Of a stretch of DNA of 64,000 nucleotides, positions 3,401-57,544 are shown piece after piece. Below the pieces are notes generated by a model, which was not told the origin of the DNA, did no database searches, and was given only the letters and a program-made list of their open reading frames with translations. The position numbers were made by a program, and so were the translations under genes. Numbering within the stretch: the first letter of the stretch is position 1; each line of letters starts with the position of its first letter. This stretch comes from Dehalococcoidia bacterium (GTDB lineage: Bacteria; Chloroflexota; Dehalococcoidia; Lucifugimonadales; CATOSD01): positions 1,878,760 through 1,942,759 of the forward strand of contig CBDBBO010000001.1 of NCBI GenBank assembly GCA_965203135.1, given 5' to 3'.

Positions 3401-6301
<2,901 letters not shown>

Positions 6302-27199: not shown

Positions 27200-30100
27200 A
27201 TGGACACACTCATACACGAATCGTCGGAGGTCGCCCTGGACCCGGGCGTCAGCCTCGAGGAGGCCGCCGGGCTGAAGCGGGAGATAGAGATGCTGCGGGC
27301 CCGCCTTTCCGAGTTGAGCGGGGCTACTCTGCGCATCATCGAGGATCCGGACCTCGACACTGTCCTGCAGGGAGTCATAGACGGGGCCCGCTCGCTGACC
27401 GGCGCACGGTACGGCGCGCTCCTCATCCTCGACCACCTTGGGGGCATCGAGGCTCTCATCACCTCCGGCATAACCTACGAAGAGGCTGCGGCTATCACAG
27501 TCGAGCCCAAGGGTTTGGGATTGCTGGGATATCTCAACGAGCTTCGGGGGCCGCTGAGACTGCGGGACATCGCCGCTCATCACAGGTCGATAGGTTTTCC
27601 CAAAGGCCACCCCCCGATGAAGAGCTTTCTCGGGACCCCGATCATCCATCGCGGCGAGAGGCTCGGCAACATCTACCTCACCGAGAAGGAGCACGGCGAG
27701 GAGTTCACGCCGGAAGACGAAGAGAGCCTCACCGTGTTCGCCTCCCATGCGGCGACGGCCATCTTCAACGCCCGAGCCTACCAGTTCGAGCGCCAGGCCA
27801 AGGCCGACCTGGAGGCGCTGAACGAGCGATTTCTCATGCTTTGCGAGGCCGTTCGCGTCCTCAGCGAAAGCCTCGACGTCGATTCCGTTCTAGACCGGAT
27901 TGTGACCAGCGCGAGGTCGCTCACCGGAGCGCGCAACGGCTTGATTACGACGCTCGACGAGTCCGGGCGGCTGGTGGACTTCTACACCTCCGGGTTCACC
28001 CCCGAAGATCGCGAGGTCCTGCTGGACGTGCCCCGAGGGCCGGAGATACTGGACCACTTTCACAACCTGCCGCGCCCGTTGCGCGTGCCGGACTTGACGG
28101 CCCATATCCGCAACCTCGGCTTTTCCGATGCGCTTCCTCCTCTGGCGACCGCACTGTCCGTGCCGGTCTATTTCCGCGACGTCCGCGTGGGCAACCTTTA
28201 CCTCGCCAACAAAGAGGGTGGAGCCGAGTTCACCGAAGGCGACGAAGAGTTGATGAGCGTGCTCGCCTCCCAGGCGGCGGTCGCCATCGCCAACGCTCGA
28301 GCCTACCAGTCCGAGCGCCAGGCCAAGGCCGACATGGAAGCGCTGAACGAGCGATTTCTCATGCTTTGCGAGGCCGTTCGCGTCCTCAGCGAAAGTCTCG
28401 ACGTCGATTCCGTTCTAGACCGGATTGTGACCAGCGCGAGGTCGCTCACCGGAGCGCGCAACGGCTTGATTACGACGCTCGACGAGTCCGGGCAGTTGGT
28501 GAACTTCTACCCTTCCGGGTTCACCCCCGAAGATCGCGAGGTCCTGCTGGGCGTACCCCGAGGGCCGGAGATACTGGACCATTTCCACAACTTGCCGCGC
28601 CCGTTGCGCGTGCCGGACTTGACGGCCCATATCCGCAACCTCGGCTTTTCCGATGCGCTTCCCCCTCTGGCGACCGCGCTGTCCGTGCCGGTCTATTTCC
28701 ACGACGTCCGCGTGGGCAACCTTTACCTGGCCAACAAGGAAGGCGGAGCCGAGTTCACCGAAGGCGACGAAGAGTTGATGAGCGTGCTCGCCTCCCAGGC
28801 GGCGGTCGCTATCGCCAACGCCCGAGCCTACCAGTCCGAGCGGCAGGCCAAGGCCGACATGGAGGCACTGGTGGACACCTCGCCCGTGGGAGTGATGGTG
28901 TTCGACGCGAAAACGCTGGACCTGGTGTCGTTCAACCAGGAGACCAGACGGATAGTGCGTGGGCTGAGCGGGCTGGGCCGCAGCCGGGAGGCGCTGTTCA
29001 GCGTGATGAGCTTCCGGCGTCCGGACGGGCGCAAGATTCCGCACGAGGAACTGCCGACGGCCCGAGCGATACGCGACGGCAACTCGGTGCGCGCCGAGGA
29101 GATAATCATCGATCTCCCGGGCGACCAGACGATCAGAACTATCATCAACGCCACGCCCGTCTTTTCGGAAGAGGGAGAAGTAGTCTCCGTCATCACCACC
29201 ATGCAGGACATGACGCCGCTGGAGAGGACGGAAAGGCTGCGCGCCGAGTTCGTCGGCATGGTGAGCCACGAGCTTAGAACGCCGTTGGCCGCCATCAAAG
29301 GCTCCGCCGCCACTGTGCTGGGCGCTTCGTCCGCCCTCGATAGCGAGGAGATGCGCCACTTCTTCCGGGTTATAGACGATCAGGCCGACCGTATGCGCGG
29401 CCTCATCTCGGACCTTCTCGACACGGCGCAGATAGAGGCGGGCACGCTGTCGGTCGATTCCGAGCCCGCTGATATGGCGGACCTGGTCGAGGAGGCGAGG
29501 CGCGCCTTCCTGCGCGGCGGAGCCACGAACGTCATCGAGGCCGACCTCCCGCCGGGCCTGCCCCGTGTCGAGGTGGACCGGCAGCGCATGGGGCAGGTGC
29601 TGAACAACCTCTTCGCCTACGCCTCCAGGCACTCGCCCTATATGTCCACCATCAGGATGAGCGCGTCGGTGGACGACGTGTACGTTTCCATATCAGTGGC
29701 GGACGAGAGCAGGGACGTGTCCGGCGAGCGTCTGCGCCAACTTTTCAGAAGGTTCTCTCCCGTGGACGGCGAAGACCGATACGGGCAGTCGGCGGGAGAA
29801 GGCCTAGGTCTGATCGTATGCAGGGGGATAGTGGAAGCGCACGGGGGCCGCATATGGGCCGAAAGCATCGGCCCCGGCCTGGGCACTCGGTTCACCTTCA
29901 CCGTTCCGTCCGTCGAGGAGGCCGCCCGCGGCGCGGCGGCAAACTCCGGCTGGCTCCTCGCCGACGCTGAGCGAACGGAGGGAGCGCGGACGCGCGTTCT
30001 GGTGTTGGACGATGAGCCGCACATACTGCTGCACCTTCGGAATACCCTGCGGGAAGCGGGCTACGCCTCTATGGTCACCGACAATCCGAAAGAGGCGCAC

Positions 30101-30745
30101 CGTCTCATAGAGACGGATAAGCCCCACCTGATCCTGCTCAACCCGACGCTGGCCGACCCTGTATCGGAGTACTGGACGGGCGAAATCGAGCTGATGGACG
30201 ACATCCGCGAGTTCACCGACGCGCCGGTCATCTTCATGTCGGGACAGGCCAGCGACGATGACATCGCACGCGCCTTCGACGTGGGGGCCGACGACTACAT
30301 CCTCAAGCCCTTCTCGCCGACCGAGCTGGTGGCCAGAATCAGGGCGGCCCTGCGCCGGCAATCGGCACAGGAGCCGACACAGACGCGCGAGCCTTATCTG
30401 CTGGGAGACCTGATGATAGACTACCAGGAACGCCGCGTGACGCTCGCGGGCAGGCCGGTGCAACTGACTTCCACCGAATACAAGCTGCTCTCGGACCTTT
30501 CCGCCAACGCCGGACGAGTTTTGAGCCACGACCAACTGCTGAGACGGGTCTGGGGCCCGGGCTACGAGGGCGACACACAGCCCGTACGCACCTTCGTCAA
30601 GAACCTCCGCCGCAAGCTGGGAGACGACCCGAGGAACCCCGCCTACATCTTCACCGAGCCCCGCGTCGGCTACCGCATGGCAAAGTCGGGGGGGGGGGGG
30701 GCACGCCGGACGCCGGACGCGAGGCGCATGACTCATGGCGATTAG
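27200..30745 (+). CDS. Soluble hybrid sensor GAF-GAF-GAF-PAS-HisKA-HATPase-REC-OmpR-type wHTH (locus 1)
   Basis: No TM segments. H-box MVSHELRTPL, G-boxes (GEGLGLIV), a receiver (VLVLDDEP...KPF) and a winged-helix tail (LTSTEYKLL...RVGYRMA). The receiver has Asn at the phospho-acceptor position (LILLNPT). Confidence 0.9.
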   Translation: MDTLIHESSEVALDPGVSLEEAAGLKREIEMLRARLSELSGATLRIIEDPDLDTVLQGVIDGARSLTGARYGALLILDHLGGIEALITSGITYEEAAAITVEPKGLGLLGYLNELRGPLRLRDIAAHHRSIGFPKGHPPMKSFLGTPIIHRGERLGNIYLTEKEHGEEFTPEDEESLTVFASHAATAIFNARAYQFERQAKADLEALNERFLMLCEAVRVLSESLDVDSVLDRIVTSARSLTGARNGLITTLDESGRLVDFYTSGFTPEDREVLLDVPRGPEILDHFHNLPRPLRVPDLTAHIRNLGFSDALPPLATALSVPVYFRDVRVGNLYLANKEGGAEFTEGDEELMSVLASQAAVAIANARAYQSERQAKADMEALNERFLMLCEAVRVLSESLDVDSVLDRIVTSARSLTGARNGLITTLDESGQLVNFYPSGFTPEDREVLLGVPRGPEILDHFHNLPRPLRVPDLTAHIRNLGFSDALPPLATALSVPVYFHDVRVGNLYLANKEGGAEFTEGDEELMSVLASQAAVAIANARAYQSERQAKADMEALVDTSPVGVMVFDAKTLDLVSFNQETRRIVRGLSGLGRSREALFSVMSFRRPDGRKIPHEELPTARAIRDGNSVRAEEIIIDLPGDQTIRTIINATPVFSEEGEVVSVITTMQDMTPLERTERLRAEFVGMVSHELRTPLAAIKGSAATVLGASSALDSEEMRHFFRVIDDQADRMRGLISDLLDTAQIEAGTLSVDSEPADMADLVEEARRAFLRGGATNVIEADLPPGLPRVEVDRQRMGQVLNNLFAYASRHSPYMSTIRMSASVDDVYVSISVADESRDVSGERLRQLFRRFSPVDGEDRYGQSAGEGLGLIVCRGIVEAHGGRIWAESIGPGLGTRFTFTVPSVEEAARGAAANSGWLLADAERTEGARTRVLVLDDEPHILLHLRNTLREAGYASMVTDNPKEAHRLIETDKPHLILLNPTLADPVSEYWTGEIELMDDIREFTDAPVIFMSGQASDDDIARAFDVGADDYILKPFSPTELVARIRAALRRQSAQEPTQTREPYLLGDLMIDYQERRVTLAGRPVQLTSTEYKLLSDLSANAGRVLSHDQLLRRVWGPGYEGDTQPVRTFVKNLRRKLGDDPRNPAYIFTEPRVGYRMAKSGGGGARRTPDARRMTHGD
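27788..28837 (+). repeat. Perfectly in-frame tandem duplication, 2 x 525 bp, of one GAF domain
   Basis: GAGCGCCAGGCCAAGGCCGAC... recurs at 27788, 28313 and (boundary) 28838. The copies differ at only a few codons. Confidence 0.9.
30688..30701 (+). repeat. G14 homopolymer tract at the 3' end of the kinase gene, 34 nt upstream of the DegV start
   Basis: CAAAGTC G14 CACGCC. It encodes the GGGG of the tail, after the wHTH has ended (GYRMA). Confidence 0.9.
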
Positions 30746-49190: not shown

Positions 49191-51626
49191 CTATCGCCGT
49201 GTCTTTGCCCTTGTCAACGGCGGCGCTGGCTCCGGCGTTGTGTCTGCTGCTGGTTTTCCCTCCCCCCTCGCCATCCGGTAGCCGACGCGGGGTTCGGTGA
49301 AGATGTACCTGGGGTTGCCAGCGTCGTCCCCCAGCTTGTGGCGGAGCCTCCTCACCATGTCCCGCACCAGCCAGGGCTCGCCGACCTTCTCCGGACCCCA
49401 GACCCGCTGTAGCAGCACGGCGTGGGTCAGCGTGCGGGGGGCGTGGACCGTAAGCTCGTAGAGCACCGCGTACTCCGTGGCCGTAAGCTCCACCGGCTCC
49501 CCTCTCACCGTCACCCGGCGCAGCGCGTAGTCGATGACCAGCCCTCCGGCCTCGTAGGGTCCCGACGGCTCGGCCTGGAAGGGGTCCAGCCGCTTCCTGA
49601 GCGCCGCCCTGATCCTCGCCGCAAGCTCCGTCGGCGAGAAGGGCTTCACCAAGTAGTCCGCCGCCCCCATGTCGAGAGCACGGGCGACGGTCTCGTCCTG
49701 GCCGTACACCGACAGGAAGATGACCGGCACGTCCGCCGTCTTGCGGATGTCGTTCATCAGCTCGATTCCGTCGCTGCCCGGGAGAATCAGGTCCAGCAGG
49801 ACAAGGTGGGGCTTCTCCTCCTCCATTAGGCGGGGCACGTCGGCGGGGTCGCCGGTGGCGACGGGCGCGTAGCCCGCCCTGGTGAGCACGTCGCGGGCGT
49901 ACCGCAGGTCCTGGGGATTGTCGTCCACGGCCAGCACACGAACCTTGGGCGCGCGCCGCGAACCGGCAGCGGCGGTATCGGGAGCCGGAGTCGCGGACCG
50001 CTCCACCGCCGGCAGCGTGAAGGTGAGTCTCGCGCCCAGGCCCGGCCCGTCGCTCTCGGCCCAGATGCGGCCCCCGTGGGCCTCGACGATGCCCTTGCAG
50101 ATGGCGAGACCCAGCCCCGACCCGTCGACGCCAGATGCCGTCGCCGCGCCGGACGCCCGGGAGAACCTGCGGAACAGCTCCGGCAGAAGCTCCGCGGGTA
50201 TGCCCCGGCCCCGGTCGGCGACTGAGACCGCTACGTGGACCCCGTCCCGCACCGCGCTCACCAGTATCGGCGACCCCTCGGGGGAATACCCTGCGGCGTT
50301 GGAGAGCAGGTTGCCCAGCACCTGGACGATGCGCCGACGATCGGCCATCACCTGGGGCAGGTCCGCAGCCACCTCCACCTCCAGGGGGTTCCTCGCGTCT
50401 GCGCTCCGGAACAGGCCCCCGGCCTCCTCCACCAGCAGGCGCAGGTCGGCGGGCTCCGGGTCCACCGGCAGCGCGCCCGCCTGGATGCGGGCCACGTCCA
50501 GCAGGTCGCCTATGAGGCCGCGCATGTGCTCGGCCTGGTCCTGGATGATGCGGAAGAACTGGCTCATCTCCGCCGGGTCCAGCCGGGCCGATTCCGCGGC
50601 CAGGGTGTCGGCAGAACCCTTGACGGACATCAGGGGGGACCGCAGCTCATGGCTCACCATGGCCAGGAATTCGGCCCGCAGCCGCTCCTGCTCCTCCAGC
50701 GGCGTCATGTCCTGTAGGGTGACGACGAACGACGCGAGCACACCCTCCTCCGAGTGGATCGGGGAGGCGTTGAGCAGGACGCTGACGCTCCGTCCGTCGG
50801 GGACCCGCAGCACGATCTCCTCGGCCCGCACCGTCTCCTCGGCCCTCAGAGCCTCGGCCACCGGCAACTCCCGCAGCGAGGTCTCCCGCCCGTCGGAACG
50901 CACCAAGGTCAGCGCCTCCAGCAGGGCCTCGGTCGGCTGGTCATCGTCCCGTAGGCTGTCCGCGATGCGCAATGCCTCCCGGTTGAAGGACACCATTCTC
51001 CCCGTCCGGGCGTCGAGGACGACGACGCCCACCGGCGAGGTGTTCACAAGCGTCTCCAAGTCGGCCCTGGTCTGCCGCTCCTCCCGGTAGGCGCGGGCGT
51101 TGGCGATGACCAGCGCCGCCTGGGAGGCGAACATCACCAGGGTCTCCTCGTCGGCCTGGGTGAACTCCTCCCCGTCCTCCCTGTCGCCCACGAAGACGTG
51201 GCCCACCCGGACTCCCCGGTGGAACATGGGCGCCGCCAGGAAGCGATAGACCGGCCCCACCGTCATGGGGATGGTGAAATCGGCGAAACCCAGGCCCCGG
51301 ACGTGCTCCACCAGGTCGGGCAGGCGCAGGGGCTCGGAGATTTCGGTCAGGGACTGGAAGATGCGCAGCCCCTCCGGCATCAGCCAGAGCTGCTCCGACT
51401 CCTCGCCGCTCAGCCCGGAGGAAAGGAAGTCCCGCAACATGCCGTCGTCGTCGAGGAGGGTCATCACCCCGTGGCGAGCGCCGGTCAGGGAGCGGGCCGA
51501 GTCCAGCGCTCCCTGGAGCACCTGGTCGAAGTCTAGGCTCTCGTTGATGCGCCGGCTGGCCTCGCTCAGCCGCGACAGGCGCTCCCGCAGCGCCTCTATC
51601 TCCCGGTCCCGCTGGTCTGCACTCAC
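49191..51626 (-). CDS. Soluble hybrid sensor GAF-PAS-HisKA-HATPase-REC-OmpR-type wHTH (locus 2)
   Basis: GTG start after AGGAGG. H-box MVSHELRSPL. Canonical receiver (LVLLDLILPGSDG, KPF) and wHTH (LTATEYAVL...RVGYRMA). Confidence 0.9.
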   Translation of the reverse strand: MSADQRDREIEALRERLSRLSEASRRINESLDFDQVLQGALDSARSLTGARHGVMTLLDDDGMLRDFLSSGLSGEESEQLWLMPEGLRIFQSLTEISEPLRLPDLVEHVRGLGFADFTIPMTVGPVYRFLAAPMFHRGVRVGHVFVGDREDGEEFTQADEETLVMFASQAALVIANARAYREERQTRADLETLVNTSPVGVVVLDARTGRMVSFNREALRIADSLRDDDQPTEALLEALTLVRSDGRETSLRELPVAEALRAEETVRAEEIVLRVPDGRSVSVLLNASPIHSEEGVLASFVVTLQDMTPLEEQERLRAEFLAMVSHELRSPLMSVKGSADTLAAESARLDPAEMSQFFRIIQDQAEHMRGLIGDLLDVARIQAGALPVDPEPADLRLLVEEAGGLFRSADARNPLEVEVAADLPQVMADRRRIVQVLGNLLSNAAGYSPEGSPILVSAVRDGVHVAVSVADRGRGIPAELLPELFRRFSRASGAATASGVDGSGLGLAICKGIVEAHGGRIWAESDGPGLGARLTFTLPAVERSATPAPDTAAAGSRRAPKVRVLAVDDNPQDLRYARDVLTRAGYAPVATGDPADVPRLMEEEKPHLVLLDLILPGSDGIELMNDIRKTADVPVIFLSVYGQDETVARALDMGAADYLVKPFSPTELAARIRAALRKRLDPFQAEPSGPYEAGGLVIDYALRRVTVRGEPVELTATEYAVLYELTVHAPRTLTHAVLLQRVWGPEKVGEPWLVRDMVRRLRHKLGDDAGNPRYIFTEPRVGYRMARGEGKPAADTTPEPAPPLTRAKTRR

Positions 51627-51710
51627 CGAATCTTACCTCCTGGGTTGGGGGTGACGGGGCCGTTTCCGGCCCCGGACGCACTGGGGTCTTCACAGAATTA
51701 TACTCCACTG

Positions 51711-51729
51711 TCCACAACACTTTCCACAA
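51711..51729 (-). promoter_or_regulatory. Direct repeat TTGTGGA-N5-TTGTGGA next to a TATAAT box in the locus-2 divergent promoter region
   Basis: On the minus strand: TTGTGGAAAGTGTTGTGGA, followed 8 nt later by TATAAT (51702-51697). Orientation relative to the kinase gene is the same as for the locus-1 repeat. Confidence 0.4.
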
Positions 51730-51928
51730 AAGAAGGGGTCAAAACCACGTGGAGGCGATGGGGCGTCGGGTATAGTTTCTGCTGGGTCTGTGCGTCCCCA
51801 GCCCGAGGGAACGGCGCTGGCCGCCTGATCCCAGCGGGGAAGCTGGAAGCAGCCGCTCCGCTGGCGGGGTTGGGGGGATCATACCGACCGATGAAGCAGA
51901 CCGCTGCTTGATAGGAGACACGATAGCC

Positions 51929-54160
51929 ATGTTCGACTCAGGAAGCAACAGCAGTAGGGTGCGCCGCCTGCTGGGGGCGGCTATGCCTTCTACCCCCCCC
52001 CCCCCCCGATTCTCAGCCGCCGACAACCACGGGAGGCCCACGATGATGCGGGCCTCCTTCCTCCGCCTATCCCCGCTCCTGCTGTTGGCGGCCGCTCTCG
52101 TCGGGCTGGCGGTCTTTTTCGCGCCCGGCGCGCAGCCCGGCGCGCAGCCCGTCTCCGCGCAGGACAACTGTGACGCACCCGGCGGCGCCCGGAACGTAAA
52201 GGTGACCGCCGGCAACGCCAAGTTGACGCTGACCTGGGAGGAGCCGACGTCCTGGGGAGATTGGGATAGCGATGGCTATCGCTACTATATTGTCCATTGG
52301 CGGCGAGCCGACGCCGACCCTGAGCTTTCATTCAATCTGATCGATAACGGCCGGAGCAGGAGGCCGCCGACAACATCGTATGTGTTTACAGGCACCTATG
52401 AAGAGGAGCTCTCAAATCCTCGCAGGTTTCAAAATCACACAGTTGTGAATGGAACCAAGTACGATCTGGATGTTCAGACAGCTTACACCAATCGAGAATG
52501 CGGACACACTCGCGGCCAACAGGTGCAAGCGTCCGGCACCCCGGTGGAAACCCTGGAAATCCCATCCGCCGACGCCACCCTCAGCGGCCTGGAGCTGGCC
52601 AACGCCGCGGACGACAGCGACGCGCCGGTGGATCGGATAGGGTACATCAGCGAAGATCGCCTCTACCTCGCCCCGATGCTGCGGGAAGTCGATTTCATAA
52701 CTGTCAAGCCCACCGCCACGGCGGGAGACCTCGCGACCATCACGGTGCGGCGAGAGATGGGCGGGACGCCCGAGACCGTGGCCAGCGGCGCAATCAGCTC
52801 CAGAATTCACATCGCTCCCAAAGCGGACTCGAGCGTTCCTCACAACATCTTCGTGACGGTGACCGCGGAGAACGGCAGCGACACCCTGACCTACCATGTA
52901 AAAGTCTACCAATACCCTCCCGTCAGCTTCCAGGGCGTCACCGTGGAGGACAAGACCTACACCGAGGGTAGAGAAATCTCATTCCTGAACCTCAGCGAGA
53001 CTGAGAGGGACGCTCTCAAGCTGCCCCAGGCGGCCGGCGTATTTTATGCCGTAGACGTCACCTACGAGGCCACGGGCCTGCCCGCAGGGTTGACCATGGG
53101 CCACGACAGGCACATCCGCGGCACGCCCACGGCCAAGACCGACACCCCGGCCACTGTCACCTACAAGGTCACTGACGCTATTGGCGGCTCGGCTTCCCTC
53201 ACGTTCCAGGTGACGGTCAACCCGCCGGTGGCCTTCGACGCGGAAGACCTCAACACCTACTACGGGAGGGTCATCACCTACACCGCGGGCCAGGCGGCGC
53301 CCCTCACCGTCACACTGCCGCAGGCCACGGGAGGCACGGGGACGCTGACCTACGAACTGGTATTCCGCACCGCCGAGGCCGTTCCGCCGTCTGTCCCCGG
53401 CGCGGGCGTAAACCTGGATCCCTCCACCCGGGTCCTGACCATCGACGGGAACTCGAATGTCAACCGGATCGCTCTCCGGGACACGGGATACGCCATCAGC
53501 TACCGGGCGAGGGACGAAAATGGGGCGACGGCGTCGGCCGCCAGCAGCATCTCCGTGATCGGACCTCCGACCCTGTCGAACATAGAGGACCAGTCCTACA
53601 CCGCGGGCAGTGCCGTCTCTCTCACACTGGGGGCGGCCAGCGGGCCGTGGTGGAAGATGGTGGCCCCGTTGAGCTATGAGCTCGCGGGGCAGGTCGATGG
53701 CCTCGCCTTTTCCGGAGGGAGCAACCCCACCCTCTCCGGCACGCCCACGGTTGCGGGCGTCACGGCGATGACCTACACGGCAACGGACGGCAACGGCGTC
53801 AGCGCCAGCCGGAACTTCACCGTCACCGTGGTCAACGGTCCCAATGTCCCGACCGCCGCGCCCGCGTCCCTGGCAGCAGTCCAGGTAAGCCGGGACGCTG
53901 TGGCGACCTGGGACGCCGTGACGGGAGCGACGGCCTACGTGGTCCAGGTCATAGCCGACGGCGGCAGCTACCCGGACAGGCCGGTCAACTCCACGCCCGC
54001 CGGCGTCGCTCTCAGCTTCCTCGTAGGCAGCGTCAGCGGCGTCAGCATCGAAGGCCTCAGCGACGGCGACTACAAGGTGCGCGTCGCCGCCAGGAACGAT
54101 GACGGCGTGGGCCCGTGGTCGGCGGAGGCCAGCTTCACCGTGAAGGTGGGAGGGCTCTAG
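51929..54160 (+). CDS. N-anchored surface protein (FN3, cadherin-like, several He_PIG-like Ig domains, C-terminal FN3) with a poly-C tract in its leader
   Basis: AGGAG plus 11 nt plus ATGTTCGAC start context, shared with 55341. An alternative internal start at ATG 52043 follows GGGAGG. The signal-anchor is LLLLAAALVGLAVFFAPGAQ. Ends in VGGL. Confidence 0.75.
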   Translation: MFDSGSNSSRVRRLLGAAMPSTPPPPRFSAADNHGRPTMMRASFLRLSPLLLLAAALVGLAVFFAPGAQPGAQPVSAQDNCDAPGGARNVKVTAGNAKLTLTWEEPTSWGDWDSDGYRYYIVHWRRADADPELSFNLIDNGRSRRPPTTSYVFTGTYEEELSNPRRFQNHTVVNGTKYDLDVQTAYTNRECGHTRGQQVQASGTPVETLEIPSADATLSGLELANAADDSDAPVDRIGYISEDRLYLAPMLREVDFITVKPTATAGDLATITVRREMGGTPETVASGAISSRIHIAPKADSSVPHNIFVTVTAENGSDTLTYHVKVYQYPPVSFQGVTVEDKTYTEGREISFLNLSETERDALKLPQAAGVFYAVDVTYEATGLPAGLTMGHDRHIRGTPTAKTDTPATVTYKVTDAIGGSASLTFQVTVNPPVAFDAEDLNTYYGRVITYTAGQAAPLTVTLPQATGGTGTLTYELVFRTAEAVPPSVPGAGVNLDPSTRVLTIDGNSNVNRIALRDTGYAISYRARDENGATASAASSISVIGPPTLSNIEDQSYTAGSAVSLTLGAASGPWWKMVAPLSYELAGQVDGLAFSGGSNPTLSGTPTVAGVTAMTYTATDGNGVSASRNFTVTVVNGPNVPTAAPASLAAVQVSRDAVATWDAVTGATAYVVQVIADGGSYPDRPVNSTPAGVALSFLVGSVSGVSIEGLSDGDYKVRVAARNDDGVGPWSAEASFTVKVGGL
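51993..52007 (+). repeat. C15 homopolymer tract in the 5' leader of gene 51929..54160
   Basis: TCTA C15 GATTC. It encodes TPPPP and is in frame with the downstream signal-anchor at this length. Confidence 0.9.
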
Positions 54161-54207
54161 GCGGTGCGAAGGAGACGATGAGCGGATGAGCAGGGGCGCT
54201 CGGAGGT

Positions 54208-55299
54208 GTGATGATGCTGCGTAGACCTGGATTGCAGGCCGGACACGTTTGGCGCGTCGCGGTCGTCGCCGTGCTTGCCGCTGCGGCGCTCCTGCTCCTC
54301 CACGACGCGCCGCACGCCGCCTGGGCGCAGGCCCCACCGTCCGACGACGCCACCCTCAGCGCGCTGGAGATCGCGAACGCCACGACCGGCAGCGACGCGT
54401 CGGCGGGCACGGTGTGGCCCTTTGGCGCTCGCGCCTACGTCGCCGTGATGCTCCAGGAGGTCACCAGCGTCACCGTCCGGCCCACCGCCACGGCGGGCGA
54501 CCTCGCGGCCATCACGGTGCAGCTGGAGAGCGGCGGGACGCCCCAGACCGTGGCCAGCGGCGCGGACAGCTCCGCAATCACCATCACCCCCAAGGCCGAC
54601 TCCTCCGTGCCGCACAACATCCTGGTGAAGGTCACCGCGGAAAACGGCAGCGACACCCTGACCTACACGCTGAAGGTGTACCAGTACCCACCCGTCAGCT
54701 TTGACGCCGCCGTCCCTGCTCTGACATTCACGCAGGGCGCCAGGGTGGAGCACCGGCTCCCGTCGGGCAGCGACGACTACGAGGTGACCTACACCGCCAC
54801 CGGCCTGCCCGCGGGACTGTCCCTGTCGAGCGTCCATCGGGCCATCGTCGGCACGCCCACTGCCGTCACCGCGAGCCCCGCCACCGTCACCTATACCGCC
54901 ACCGGCGAGATAGGCAGCACGGCCTCCCTCACCTTCGACGTGTCGGTCGCCCCGCCGGTGACCTTCGACGATGCGGCCAGGAGGTTCTGCAGCTCCAGGA
55001 TCGTCGCGTTCACCGGCGGAGAGTGGCTGGACGCCGACGACGATGGAACGATCACCTATCCGGCGGCGTCGGGCGGCGCCGGGACACTCACCTACAGCCT
55101 GATTGAATCCGACTCGCAGCAGCCGCTGGCCAGCGTGGCTTCCGGGATCACCTTCGACACCGCGACCCGGAAGCTTGGCGGAACCCCGGCGGCAGCCGCG
55201 CAGAAGACATGGTCCGTGACCTACGCTGCCGAGGATCAGAACGGCAGCCGGGCCGCGTGCACCACCGCAGTACATGCCGGCGGCTTCGGCGGCCTGTAG
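54208..55299 (+). CDS. Secreted or anchored protein with cadherin-like and He_PIG-like domains
   Basis: Start is probably ATG 54211 or 54214, after GGAGG at 54202-54206. The cadherin-like segment is about 80 percent identical by eye to that of the upstream gene. Ends in FGGL. Confidence 0.75.
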   Translation: MMMLRRPGLQAGHVWRVAVVAVLAAAALLLLHDAPHAAWAQAPPSDDATLSALEIANATTGSDASAGTVWPFGARAYVAVMLQEVTSVTVRPTATAGDLAAITVQLESGGTPQTVASGADSSAITITPKADSSVPHNILVKVTAENGSDTLTYTLKVYQYPPVSFDAAVPALTFTQGARVEHRLPSGSDDYEVTYTATGLPAGLSLSSVHRAIVGTPTAVTASPATVTYTATGEIGSTASLTFDVSVAPPVTFDDAARRFCSSRIVAFTGGEWLDADDDGTITYPAASGGAGTLTYSLIESDSQQPLASVASGITFDTATRKLGGTPAAAAQKTWSVTYAAEDQNGSRAACTTAVHAGGFGGL

Positions 55300-55404
55300 G
55301 CGCGGGGACGAAACACAATTGAAAGGAGGACTCAGCAACCATGTTCGACAACAGAGAGAAAACAACCCGCCGCGGAGCGCCGCCGGGGGCGGCCATGCCC
55401 GTTA

Positions 55405-55418
55405 CCCCCCCCCCCCCC
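55405..55418 (+). repeat. C14 homopolymer tract separating a conserved leader ORF from the Calx-beta protein body
   Basis: GTTA C14 GAACG. The upstream frame (ATG 55341) and the downstream frame (55453..56559) differ by +1. Confidence 0.9.
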
Positions 55419-55452
55419 GAACGCAAGTTCTATCCGCTCCCCGCTCCTCCTG

Positions 55453-56559
55453 TTGGCGGCCGCGCTGATGGCAATGGCGGTCCTCTTTGCGCCCGGCGCA
55501 CAGCCCGCCCAGGCCCAGGCCGCCAAGCCCACCGTGTCCCTCTCCGCCTCGCCCAACCCGGTGCGCGAGGGAACCAGTGTGACGGTGACGGCGAGGATTT
55601 CCCGCACCCGGAACTCCGAAACGGTGGTCCCGGTGACGCTGCACGCCGGTTCTGCCGAAGAGGACGACCACGGCGCACTGACGAGCATCACCATCCCCGC
55701 CAACTCTGCCACCGGCACGGGCGTCATCACCACCACGATGGACAGCGACACGGATGACGAGGTCTTCCACGTGGGGCTCGACAACGTGGGCAAGGACGCG
55801 GATTACGCTTGGGGTGCCGTGTCGTGGTTGAGTATCACCATCCTGGACAGCGATCTCCGCCAGGTGTCCCTCTCCGTCTCCGCCAACCCCGCGGACGAGG
55901 GTACTGTCCCGCAGGTGATTGTGACCCTGACGTCACTGAGGTGGGGCACCCCAGCGTCCCTGGGGAGCGACGTGACGATCCCGCTGACGTTCACCGCCGG
56001 CTCGGCCGAGAGCGACGACTATTCCGATTTTCCGAGCGTCACCATCCCCGCCGGCTCGACGACCAACGGGACCAGCGGCTTCATCGTCACCACCGACGAC
56101 ACCGACGCCGACGACGAGACCTTCACCATTGCGCTGGACACGGCCAACGCGGCCTGGCCGTCGGGGGTGAAGCCGGGCGCGGTCTCCTCGGTGCTGGTCA
56201 GGATCACGGACAACGACGCGGCTTCGCCGGGGACGCTGAGCGTGGACACCGGTTTCGGAAACCCGGAGTGCGGGGCCACTATCAGCGTCACCTCCGAGAC
56301 GCCGGAGTGGGCGCTCGTGCTCAGCCCGGCCCCGTCCGCTGAGGAAAACACGCAATACCGGGTCCTGGCCGATGCGAACGGCCCCTGGCTGGGGGCAGTT
56401 CCGGTCCTTACCACCGGCAGCTCGGTCTTCACCTCCTTCAAGACCTATGCCGCACATCTGGAGGCCTCCCCCGGCTTCAGGGGGTTCGAATTCAGACTCG
56501 CCGACCACGCGGACGTCACGGCGAGCTGCACCTGGACGTTCCAGACCGGAGGAGTATAG
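55453..56559 (+). CDS. Surface protein with three Calx-beta-like repeats; its body is out of frame with its probable start (ATG 55341) at the C14 tract
   Basis: The track ORF starts at an internal TTG inside the signal-anchor (..SPLLLLAAALMAMAVLFAPGAQ). No in-frame ATG/GTG/TTG lies upstream. The leader MFDNREKTTRRGAPPGAAMPVTPPPP from 55341 is homologous to the leader of gene 51929. Ends in TGGV. Confidence 0.7.
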   Translation: MAAALMAMAVLFAPGAQPAQAQAAKPTVSLSASPNPVREGTSVTVTARISRTRNSETVVPVTLHAGSAEEDDHGALTSITIPANSATGTGVITTTMDSDTDDEVFHVGLDNVGKDADYAWGAVSWLSITILDSDLRQVSLSVSANPADEGTVPQVIVTLTSLRWGTPASLGSDVTIPLTFTAGSAESDDYSDFPSVTIPAGSTTNGTSGFIVTTDDTDADDETFTIALDTANAAWPSGVKPGAVSSVLVRITDNDAASPGTLSVDTGFGNPECGATISVTSETPEWALVLSPAPSAEENTQYRVLADANGPWLGAVPVLTTGSSVFTSFKTYAAHLEASPGFRGFEFRLADHADVTASCTWTFQTGGV

Positions 56560-56563
56560 GTAA

Positions 56564-57544
56564 ATGAGAGGCACGATGCGACGCATTGCACTGGCTGCGG
56601 GACTGCTGCTAATCCTCTCCGTCGCTCTCGCGGCCTGCGGGGGCGGCGAGGAGGCGCTGACCAGCTCTGAGGTGGAGCAGATCGTCAACGACGCCATCGA
56701 GGAGATGCCCAAGAATGAGCCCGCCCTGACGCGGGCCGACGTTGAGGAGATAGTGCGGGCGGCCATCGCCGCCATCCCGTCCAAGTCCGCCCCCGCCGAG
56801 TACACGCAATACTTCGTGGGCAACGCCATCTCACGCTACGAATCCCAGGGCCGGGACGCCACCCTCGCCCACTACAACAGCCCGCAGAGCGTGGACGGCC
56901 AGTGGTACGTCTTCATCATCGACCAGAACGATCTCGTCATCGGACACCCCGACCCCGGACGACTGGGCCTGGACCTGAAGGGCTGGGTGGGCACCGACGC
57001 CAACGGCTACGAGTTCGGGCCTGAGATGCTCTCGGCCACGGAGGAGGGCAAGTGGGTGTCCTACGTCTACCGCAACCCGGAGAGCGGTGGCATAGGCACC
57101 GGCGACTTCGAGCTCAAGAACGCCTGGGTGGTGAAGCGCGACGGGCTGCTGTTCGGCTCGGGCTGGTACATCGACGCGGACGAGTTCACCAGGATGCTGG
57201 TGTCCGTGGCGGTGGACAAGTACCGCGAACTGGGACTGGCGGGAACGATGGCCTACTTCGCCAGCCCGGGAAGCGTCCTGGCGGGCCTTGAGGAGGCCAT
57301 CGCCTACTACAACGACACCGAGACCATCGACGGCCACTGGTTCGCCTTCATAGGAGGGCCGGACGGGAAGATCGTGGGCCACTCCGACATCTCGAAGATC
57401 GGCGGGGACGTCCAGCACCTGTTCGGCGGGGAGACGTTCGAGGCCACCGAGTCTGGCGTCTGGGTCGAGTCCGAGTCGCTGCGGGTGTACGTGGCGGGCT
57501 ACGACGGCCACGTCTTCGGCTCCGGCTGGAGCCGGGACGAGTAG
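56564..57544 (+). CDS. Lipoprotein with tandem Cache-like domains, paralog 2
   Basis: Lipobox LAAC. About 85 percent identical by eye to 22270..23244 over roughly 265 aa. Confidence 0.8.
   Translation: MRGTMRRIALAAGLLLILSVALAACGGGEEALTSSEVEQIVNDAIEEMPKNEPALTRADVEEIVRAAIAAIPSKSAPAEYTQYFVGNAISRYESQGRDATLAHYNSPQSVDGQWYVFIIDQNDLVIGHPDPGRLGLDLKGWVGTDANGYEFGPEMLSATEEGKWVSYVYRNPESGGIGTGDFELKNAWVVKRDGLLFGSGWYIDADEFTRMLVSVAVDKYRELGLAGTMAYFASPGSVLAGLEEAIAYYNDTETIDGHWFAFIGGPDGKIVGHSDISKIGGDVQHLFGGETFEATESGVWVESESLRVYVAGYDGHVFGSGWSRDE

Follow-up and report, generated by a model that had tools for sequence, protein, structure and literature searches.

How can a secreted protein be made from a gene whose intact body lies out of frame with the start codon in front of it? 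This question is raised by the 55341 gene in a stretch of 64,000 nucleotides from contig CBDBBO010000001.1 of a Dehalococcoidia bacterium (the whole stretch is hereafter called the window), in which a run of 14 C residues (C14) separates a translation start at ATG 55341 from a signal peptide and a body predicted to adopt a Calx-beta fold. A first-pass annotation had read this arrangement as candidate slipped-strand phase variation caught in the OFF state. From comparison with related sequences, we consider it probable that the C14 locus is a slippage-driven on/off switch of a secreted, adhesin-like gene of Calx-beta fold. The proposal of a slipped-strand switch is now backed by homologous loci with tracts of C9 to C23, by a C18/C22 pair, by paralogues that differ in frame and by a continuous relative that lacks the tract (L004/P0011).

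Ahead of the tract (Table 1), the frame of ATG 55341 reads MFDNREKTTRRGAPPGAAMPVT. Beyond it, this frame continues to the end of an open reading frame (ORF) at 55341..55757 whose post-tract part is unlike any homologue N-terminus. The body occupies the +1 frame, in which 379 codons run to the terminal TAG with no internal stop, and in which amino-acid homology to the family signal peptide reaches the edge of the tract. The preceding stop in the body frame is the TAG at 55297-55299 that ends the upstream gene. Between that stop and TTG 55453, itself located inside the hydrophobic core of the signal peptide, there is no ATG, GTG or TTG; the only near-cognate codons in the body frame are ATT 55318, ATC 55432 and CTG 55450, none of them preceded by a purine-rich Shine-Dalgarno (SD) sequence. 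In silico, a tract of C13 or C16 yields a single continuous ORF of 405 or 406 amino acids, while C14 and C15 yield none. The first-pass annotation had described much of this without error: the GGAGG placed 11 nt before ATG 55341, the position of the C14 tract, the descent of the ATG frame into nonsense, the want of a body-frame start before a TTG in mid-anchor, the rejoining of the gene at C13 or C16, and a signal anchor in the +1 frame, which indeed aligns with homologue N-termini of the form MMRASxFRLSPLLLLAAAL. The homology it had proposed between this leader and that of gene 51929 was likewise borne out by alignment.

Two routes around the tract were considered and set aside. A later start at TTG 55453 or ATG 55468, as in the database gene call P0001, was rejected because family conservation (SIRSPLLLL) extends upstream to the tract and because neither codon is preceded by an SD. 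Read-through from the upstream gene, which shares the body frame up to its TAG at 55297, was judged a coincidence of frame; the signal peptide would be buried internally in such a product.

Table 1 Features of the 55341 gene, its paralogue 51929 and their neighbours in the window
Feature	Position	Strand	Remarks
Shine-Dalgarno GGAGG of leader start	55325..55329	+	11-nt spacer to ATG 55341
Leader coding segment MFDNREKTTRRGAPPGAAMPV(T)	55341..55404	+	second same-frame ATG at 55395
C14 homopolymer, proposed slippage tract	55405..55418	+	A before, G after; poly-Pro in every frame
Signal-peptide segment NASSIRSPLLLLAAALMAMAVLFAPGAQPAQAQA, +1 frame	55420..55521	+	AQA-type (AQAQA) cleavage motif, judged by eye
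Mature body, two Calx-beta-like beta-sandwich domains and a third C-terminal beta domain	55522..56559	+	stop TAG 56557-56559
Paralogous leader MFDSGSNSSRVRRLLGAAMPS(T)	51913..51992	+	SD AGGAG 51913-51917; ATG 51929
C15 tract at homologous site	51993..52007	+	leader fused in frame to main ORF in this assembly
Internal SD GGGAGG and ATGATG of paralogue	52031..52048	+	SD 52031-52036; ATGATG 52043-52048; usual main-ORF start of the family
Neighbour with He_PIG, Big_9 and fn3 domains	51929..54160		secreted-protein cluster
Neighbour with He_PIG and cadherin-like domain	54208..55299		secreted-protein cluster
Cache-domain protein	56564..57544		secreted-protein cluster
Hybrid GAF-PAS-histidine-kinase-receiver-OmpR gene	49191..51626	-	adjoins secreted-protein cluster

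The C14 tract is far beyond chance. At a G+C content of 65.5%, the window contains 61 C runs of length 5, four of length 6 and none of 7-13, and the only longer ones are the C14 tract and the C15 tract of paralogue 51929. G runs reach a maximum of 6, with none of 7-13, apart from a single G14 (30688-30701). The expected number of runs of at least 14 in the window is 0.002-0.01. Tested against the features of a contingency locus, the tract is a mononucleotide run of hypermutable length (about 8 or more) inside a 5' reading frame, its repeat number toggles in silico between a full-length and a truncated ORF, and the product is of surface type, with several such loci per genome.

The arrangement recurs well beyond the window. 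A search with the repaired protein retrieved 61 homologues, of which the best apart from the protein itself was 85% identical, and the locus shares 77-88% DNA identity with loci in related metagenome-assembled genomes (MAGs). We scanned the DNA around five homologues (L001-L005) for homopolymers, searched a genome collection with the pattern C12+GAWYNYMA and searched metagenomes with the conserved pre-tract motif, the last of which added nine loci of C10-C22. The genome scan gave at least 119 stretches, with 121 matches in the saved loci, mostly unrelated or artefactual, and only matches with leader and signal-peptide context were used; runs of C26-C71 at contig ends were dismissed as artefacts, as was the tract of L008, which is followed by what we take to be Illumina adapter sequence. 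From these sources a recurring cassette emerged, consisting of an SD, a ATGTTCGAC leader, a poly-C tract of C9-C23 and a signal peptide, placed ahead of many secreted adhesin-like genes in MAGs of Dehalococcoidia and Tepidiformaceae, several of them from the sponge Aplysina. It begins with AAGGAGG, 10-11 nt, ATGTTC(G/A)AC and some 20 leader codons that often end in RRLLRAAMPxT before the poly-C, and continues as GATTTTCA..CTGA..GGAGG..ATGATG and the signal peptide. The leader SD and its spacing of 10-11 nt are kept in L001, L003, L005, L040 and L091.

Tract length differs widely among these loci: C9 and C17 in L001 (the C17 belonging to the orthologue of the window gene), C13 in L002, C14, C13 and C15 in L003, C16 and C19 in L005 and, from the genome-collection scan, C16 in each of L016, L040 and L091 and C23 in L101. 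Together with L126-L133, the lengths found at the cassette are C9, C10, C13-C19, C22 and C23. There are two cassette loci in the window, four on the 3,099,459-bp Dehalococcoidia MAG chromosome OZ241880.1 (which carries both L003 and L016) and at least five in the Tepidiformaceae genome OZ220489.1. The tracts occur in Illumina-only and long-read assemblies alike; the MKWU01 contigs, which hold several of these loci, come from an Illumina-only assembly of the Aplysina aerophoba sponge microbiome (PMC5649159).

The cassette is systematically mis-annotated. A profile search with the leader and signal peptide returned many 'proteins' of 35-50 amino acids that are in fact leader ORFs ending right before the main ATG, one of them assigned by NCBI to a 'Chloroflexi bacterium' MAG, and gene callers split the loci into an orphan leader 'gene' of this size and an N-terminally truncated main gene (P0001, P0006, P0010, P0063-P0080). 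It is probably under-sampled as well: short-read contigs can end inside the tracts, as L132 and L133 do, and these loci may therefore be under-represented in short-read MAGs.

Two forms of the cassette can be distinguished, and the difference bears directly on what the tract may do. Fifteen loci, paralogue 51929 among them, are of the long form, in which a separate SD and ATG beyond the tract serve the main ORF; most homologues start at this internal SD and ATGATG. The leader is fused to the main ORF in 7 of the 15, stops at a TGA overlapping the main ATG (ATGA) in 3 and stops at a conserved TGA about 13 nt past the tract in 5. This 7/3/5 spread shows no frame bias among the 15 loci relative to a uniform distribution, and tract length modulo 3 is therefore not fixed. 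In paralogue 51929, C14 or C17 would end the leader at a TGA overlapping the ATGATG, and C13 or C16 would let it continue in the wrong frame, because the conserved post-tract TGA of the family is CGA in this gene. The short form, which is in the minority in the family, has no start beyond the tract and depends on the leader ATG for translation. The window gene is of this form: a segment of some 44 nt with the SD and ATGATG, carried by paralogue 51929 and by the L001 orthologue, is missing from it, and the frame of the tract is therefore decisive in this gene. The 'conserved start' of the first-pass annotation must accordingly be qualified: the SD and leader are conserved, but in most relatives and in 51929 they mark the start of a leader ORF, with the main ORF restarting past the tract.

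Comparison of sequences indicates that the short form is more than an isolated defect. The motif that follows the tract in the window gene, GAACGCAAGTTCTA, reappears as GAACCTAAGTTCTAG in L005 and as CCTAGGTTCCAG in L004, where only C4 is left of the tract and the leader passes directly into the signal peptide (P0011: MSGNREKMNRLSPRRLLRAAMPLGSSLAIRRPSPLLLL). Proteins have been called from short forms that are in frame and have some three Pro codons at the site of the tract (P0062, P0072, P0080). The three short forms with long tracts are all out of frame, namely the window gene at C14, L005 at C16 (with an otherwise intact body of 506 codons) and L016 at C16.

The most direct evidence that length changes comes from two Joint Genome Institute samples. 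Their loci L127 and L129 are identical at all 1791 aligned nucleotides over 1795 columns, and the single gap, of 4 nt, is the tract itself (C18 versus C22), which shifts the leader from a stop overlapping the main ATG to fusion. A related design in OZ220489.1, ATGTCTA-Cn-GAACATAAGAAGG, is present in at least five copies, among which tracts of C19 and C16 are in frame (ON) and tracts of C14 and C15 are out of frame (OFF). In these paralogues, and in L005, the two wrong frames reach TAA or TAG within 2-6 codons of the tract; built-in stops right after the tract are a hallmark of evolved on/off tracts.

The Calx-beta label given in the first-pass annotation holds for the fold but not for the Pfam family: the match to PF03160 is sub-threshold (E 0.0047; 17.4 bits against a cutoff of 27), as is that of the body to DUF5006 (E 5e-4), and a profile search of PDB sequences with the body protein gave no match. 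An AlphaFold2 model built from 30 homologues is all-beta with a mean predicted local distance difference test (pLDDT) score of 86, and its best Foldseek matches in the PDB are the tandem Calx-beta domains (CBD12) of NCX1 and CALX, with E values of 3.9e-10 to 1e-8 and a template-modelling (TM) score of about 0.5 on the target. Furthermore, PF03160 is present in more distant homologues (P0022, P0023, P0028 and others). The label is thus best taken as valid at the level of the modelled fold. Against the L001 orthologue (83% amino-acid identity), the synonymous divergence (dS) is 0.20 and the ratio of nonsynonymous to synonymous divergence (dN/dS) is 0.59, which suggests weak but real constraint of a degree common for surface proteins. 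The SD and first part of the leader match that orthologue at 58 of 60 nt, compared with 88% nucleotide identity for the body.

Taken together, these observations allow a mechanism to be proposed. Translation would begin at the SD-preceded ATG 55341, or at the same-frame ATG 55395, and the ribosome would cross the tract as poly-Pro, from which it must exit in the frame of the signal peptide. Slipped-strand mispairing at replication would alter tract length, such that lengths of 3n+1 (13, 16, 19) give the full pre-protein (ON), and any other length (14, 15, 17 and so on) a short nonsense peptide in place of the secreted protein (OFF); the assembled sequence would have captured a non-productive length. 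Under this model, tract length would change at a high rate in the window organism's own population, the protein would be made only in the ON frame and switching may be selected for, for example by interaction with host or phage. The gene is one of a set of surface-protein genes in this lineage of sponge-associated Chloroflexota that have a portable cassette in common (SD, MFD...AAMP leader, poly-C and signal peptide), and a population could therefore hold cells with differing combinations of surface proteins. As to the OFF state claimed earlier, the consensus does lie in a non-productive frame; however, the call of 14 could be off by one and slippage could make the state leaky.

Several observations weigh against a slippage-driven switch. 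The L127/L129 pair is the single direct length polymorphism at one locus; it belongs to a related family member and comes from short-read assemblies, which are unreliable at C18-22. For the window locus itself, length is represented by one assembly consensus, and variation among reads or populations would have to be extrapolated from relatives, the nearest of which, L001, is 88% identical in DNA, belongs to a different species and carries its C17 in the long form. The purifying selection on the body is weak. None of the three long-tract short forms found at the DNA level is in frame, a result that chance would give with a probability of about 0.3 and that would also fit another route of expression. 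Moreover, most family members have an independent start past the tract, and the tract may therefore tune rather than switch expression, so that its primary role in the family could be regulatory.

Recoding offers another route to a product. If the DNA tract were stable, the productive frame could be reached by slippage of RNA polymerase on the 14 C residues or by +1 slippage of tRNA-Pro on CCC-C, giving reduced, constitutive and possibly regulated expression. Poly-Pro, encoded here in all tract frames, is a stall-prone context dependent on elongation factor P (EF-P), one in which tRNA-Pro is known to slip by +1. Where a homopolymer exceeds the RNA:DNA hybrid in length, the transcript can also realign isoenergetically. 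The slippage motifs listed in PMC3711429 include homopolymers of at least 8 nt. The body of the window gene lies exactly in the +1 frame that a shift on CCC-C would reach, and for that reason the OFF state may be leaky; the L005 short form needs the same shift, and the out-of-frame state of all three long-tract short forms also speaks for recoding. L016 would, however, require the opposite shift (-1 or +2), the in-frame short forms P0062, P0072 and P0080 and the tract-less, in-frame L004 also exist, and the DNA is not stable, given the differences in its length from sample to sample and from locus to locus. A recoding site normally keeps one length, with both frames conserved, whereas the tracts here run from C9 to C23 (from C4 with L004 included) in all three frame relations. 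We therefore regard recoding as unlikely to be the whole explanation; it can be compatible with DNA switching, in which case it would merely make OFF leaky. The frame could, alternatively, be an artefact of assembly or polishing, the true tract being a stable in-frame C13 or C16 and the gene ON. Long homopolymers are the main context of indel errors in long-read consensus, and the assemblies do falter at these tracts, which are garbled in L125 and L131 and truncate the contigs of L132 and L133. In L002, a contig of 2.07x coverage, a G5 run that closely follows the ATGATG (453-475) additionally throws the main ORF out of register by one base, which is probably a consensus error and illustrates that homopolymer calls in these assemblies can err. 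A slip of one base would nevertheless change the called state and not the presence of a slippage-prone coding run of 13-16 C; across homologous loci the lengths span as much as 14 nt, and two samples differ by 4 nt, far more than an error of ±1 would give, and the tracts are found with both sequencing technologies. Such an error is accordingly a very unlikely account of the locus.

Two further explanations were weighed. The leader could act in cis, through poly-Pro stalling that senses EF-P or prolyl-tRNA, through Rho loading on C-rich RNA when the leader is untranslated or through translational coupling, with length variation as noise. In keeping with this, most members retain an independent SD and ATG(ATG) 35-45 nt past the tract, such that the leader behaves as an upstream ORF whose stop overlaps the main start in one frame (ATGA) and which is called as a separate small gene; the leader is also conserved more than its cargo, and poly-Pro is encoded in any frame. 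A GC-rich hairpin (GCCGCC-loop-GGCGGC) lies right 5' of the tract in both window loci (55362-55394 and 51955-51985), with CGCCCC-tt-GGGGCG in L001 and GCCTTC-tgcg-GAAGGC in L002, and the homologous leaders of L005, L040 and L091 have a hairpin as well. The differing yet still paired sequences resemble covariation, but the hairpin is absent from four leaders, its z-scores (-3.6 to +1.6) are modest and it overlaps the conserved RRLLRAA codons, and we give it little weight. There was no Rfam match in 51500-56000 at E values up to 1, L004 functions without any tract and the stops that two frames meet directly past the tract are typical of an on/off switch. A regulatory leader cannot express the window gene, which has no post-tract start, and we consider it quite improbable as the explanation of this locus. 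It might instead be supposed that the window gene is decaying: having lost its own SD and ATGATG with the missing segment of about 44 nt, it would be dead, and the frame of its tract irrelevant. The fairly high dN/dS would agree with such decay, as would the immediate post-tract stops of L005 (TAA/TAG), which are mutated to CAA/TAT in the window gene. Yet its body is an uninterrupted ORF of 379 codons in DNA of 65% GC, the short-form motif GAAC..AAGTTCTA is shared with L005 and with the tract-less L004, in which it is in frame, and other in-frame short forms are called as proteins (P0072, P0080). Since the leader and SD, nearly identical to those of the orthologue, are better conserved than the body, an old pseudogene is unlikely, and of all the explanations weighed here decay seems to us the least probable. 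A slippage-driven switch is thus retained as the probable reading of the C14 locus.

It is tempting to speculate further that the portable leader, poly-C and signal-peptide cassette constitutes an unrecognised phasome in sponge-associated Chloroflexota. Dozens of adhesin-like proteins with eukaryotic domains could then stand under tracts of C13-C23 in each genome, with two starts giving three states per locus (N-terminally extended fusion, coupled and uncoupled). Post-tract motifs close to identity in co-resident symbionts of another phylum (L059), and the analogous design in Bryobacterales, belong to this picture. We offer this as a tentative idea; were it true, stochastic surface variation would be a general adaptation, perhaps shared horizontally, to life in an animal host that phagocytoses and abounds in phages. 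Sponge symbionts must escape being eaten by a filter-feeding host and withstand dense phage populations, and eukaryote-like adhesion domains (fn3, cadherin, Ig-like, Calx-beta) are abundant in their genomes. Even for the switch alone, population-level heterogeneity of the surface would be a testable explanation for symbiont persistence, existing metagenome read sets would be directly minable for tract-length spectra, and annotation pipelines would be seen to mis-call these genes systematically as N-terminally truncated ORFs and orphan 'genes' of 35-50 amino acids.

Comparable tracts were encountered in other settings. On the minus strand of L059 (Candidatus Aldehydirespirator sp., Acidimicrobiia), a C14 tract at 6170 is followed by GAACCTAAGCTCTAG, reading PNLSSS..., and then by a signal peptide; this post-tract motif is almost that of the Dehalococcoidia short form in L005, in a different host phylum, and the likeness could reflect transfer or convergence. 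Four loci in Dehalococcoidia MAGs (L028, L029, L085 and L098, with C16, C18, C21 and C14) form a TTCTA-Cn-GATTTTCAC family with GGGAGGTGACGGCATGAGG some 60 nt later; they have in common the TTCTA/GATTTTCA core around the tract, without an obvious MFD leader. In Bryobacterales MAGs (L024, L034, L100, L116 and L117), the reverse complement has ATGAAATTC-Gn-ATTTTCCTCCTG..., which translates to MKF-polyGly-IFLLSALLLAGLAACGG. In this lipoprotein signal peptide, found in more than one paralogue and genome, a G12-G21 tract lies at codon 4. These polyGly lipoprotein genes are an independent, analogous design in Acidobacteriota.

Within the window, the G14 run lies in the last codons of a second hybrid GAF-PAS-histidine-kinase-receiver-OmpR gene (27200..30745; 1181 amino acids), 34 nt ahead of the start of a DegV-family gene (ATG 30735). 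Its three frames merely exchange a short C-terminal tail of the kinase, with stops at about 30731, 30745 or 30750, and the run therefore cannot turn the kinase off; it might alter the tail, or the coupling to or expression of the DegV gene. Within the same kinase gene, some 175 residues of a GAF domain are duplicated almost perfectly, such that AYQ(F/S)ERQAKAD(L/M)EALNERFLMLCEAVRVLSESLDVDSVLDRIVTSARSLTGARNGLITTLDESG... is present twice.

How, finally, does the locus compare with known systems? Poly-C tracts also act as promoter spacers in the phase variation of Bordetella pertussis fim2/fim3 and Neisseria opc, and, as there, the main start of a surface gene is preceded by a poly-C of about 13-15, after which the long forms have GATTTT where a -10 box would lie. 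In contrast to those systems, an SD, an ATG and an open frame with a conserved peptide sequence stand upstream of the tract, and no sigma-70-like -35/-10 pair was found around either the C14 or the C15 tract. A promoter-spacer model was ruled out for the 55341 gene, which has no start downstream of its tract. In Haemophilus influenzae lic1 and lic2A, a CAAT repeat lies downstream of several ATGs and expression is graded. The long forms, 51929 included, resemble these loci in having starts on both sides of the tract and three frames with three outcomes; they differ in that the second start is downstream with its own SD, such that the main ORF may be made in all states, in that the repeat is a homopolymer and not a tetranucleotide, and in that graded output here would follow from the arrangement of the starts. 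In Bifidobacterium breve, Penno and colleagues reportedly found by deep sequencing (2022) that a sortase-dependent pilus locus is switched by replication slippage in poly-G. Both cases concern a G/C homopolymer that turns a surface adhesion function ON or OFF in a non-pathogenic, host-associated, high-GC bacterium; the B. breve switch, in contrast to our comparative case, is a single experimentally established locus in Actinomycetota without a leader cassette.

Slipped-strand contingency loci are textbook knowledge for a few vertebrate pathogens and commensals, and the closest parallels are translational phase variation by 5' G/C tracts, as in the poly-G of Neisseria pilC and the poly-G/C loci of Campylobacter jejuni and Helicobacter. 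Phase variation by homopolymeric tracts has been reviewed (PMC11868660) and surveyed more generally (PMC2831843), and a 2025 review of the slipped-strand field leaves Chloroflexota, symbionts and environmental bacteria unmentioned. The first-pass annotation had been aware of no earlier description; our search, in which most papers in subscription journals fell outside its reach, likewise found no report for Chloroflexota or sponge symbionts. The tracts here are longer (13-23 against the usual 8-13), they lie within a conserved leader cassette common to unrelated cargo, and the host is an uncultured, high-GC, sponge-associated member of Chloroflexota and not a vertebrate pathogen or commensal; switching, moreover, is deduced here from sequence. 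In all else the likeness is close: a mononucleotide G/C run just past the start of a secreted or surface gene, one productive length in three, several genes per genome and tract length that varies between otherwise identical sequences. Thus, the 55341 locus is likely to represent a known mechanism, the contingency locus, in a new lineage and in a new cassette.

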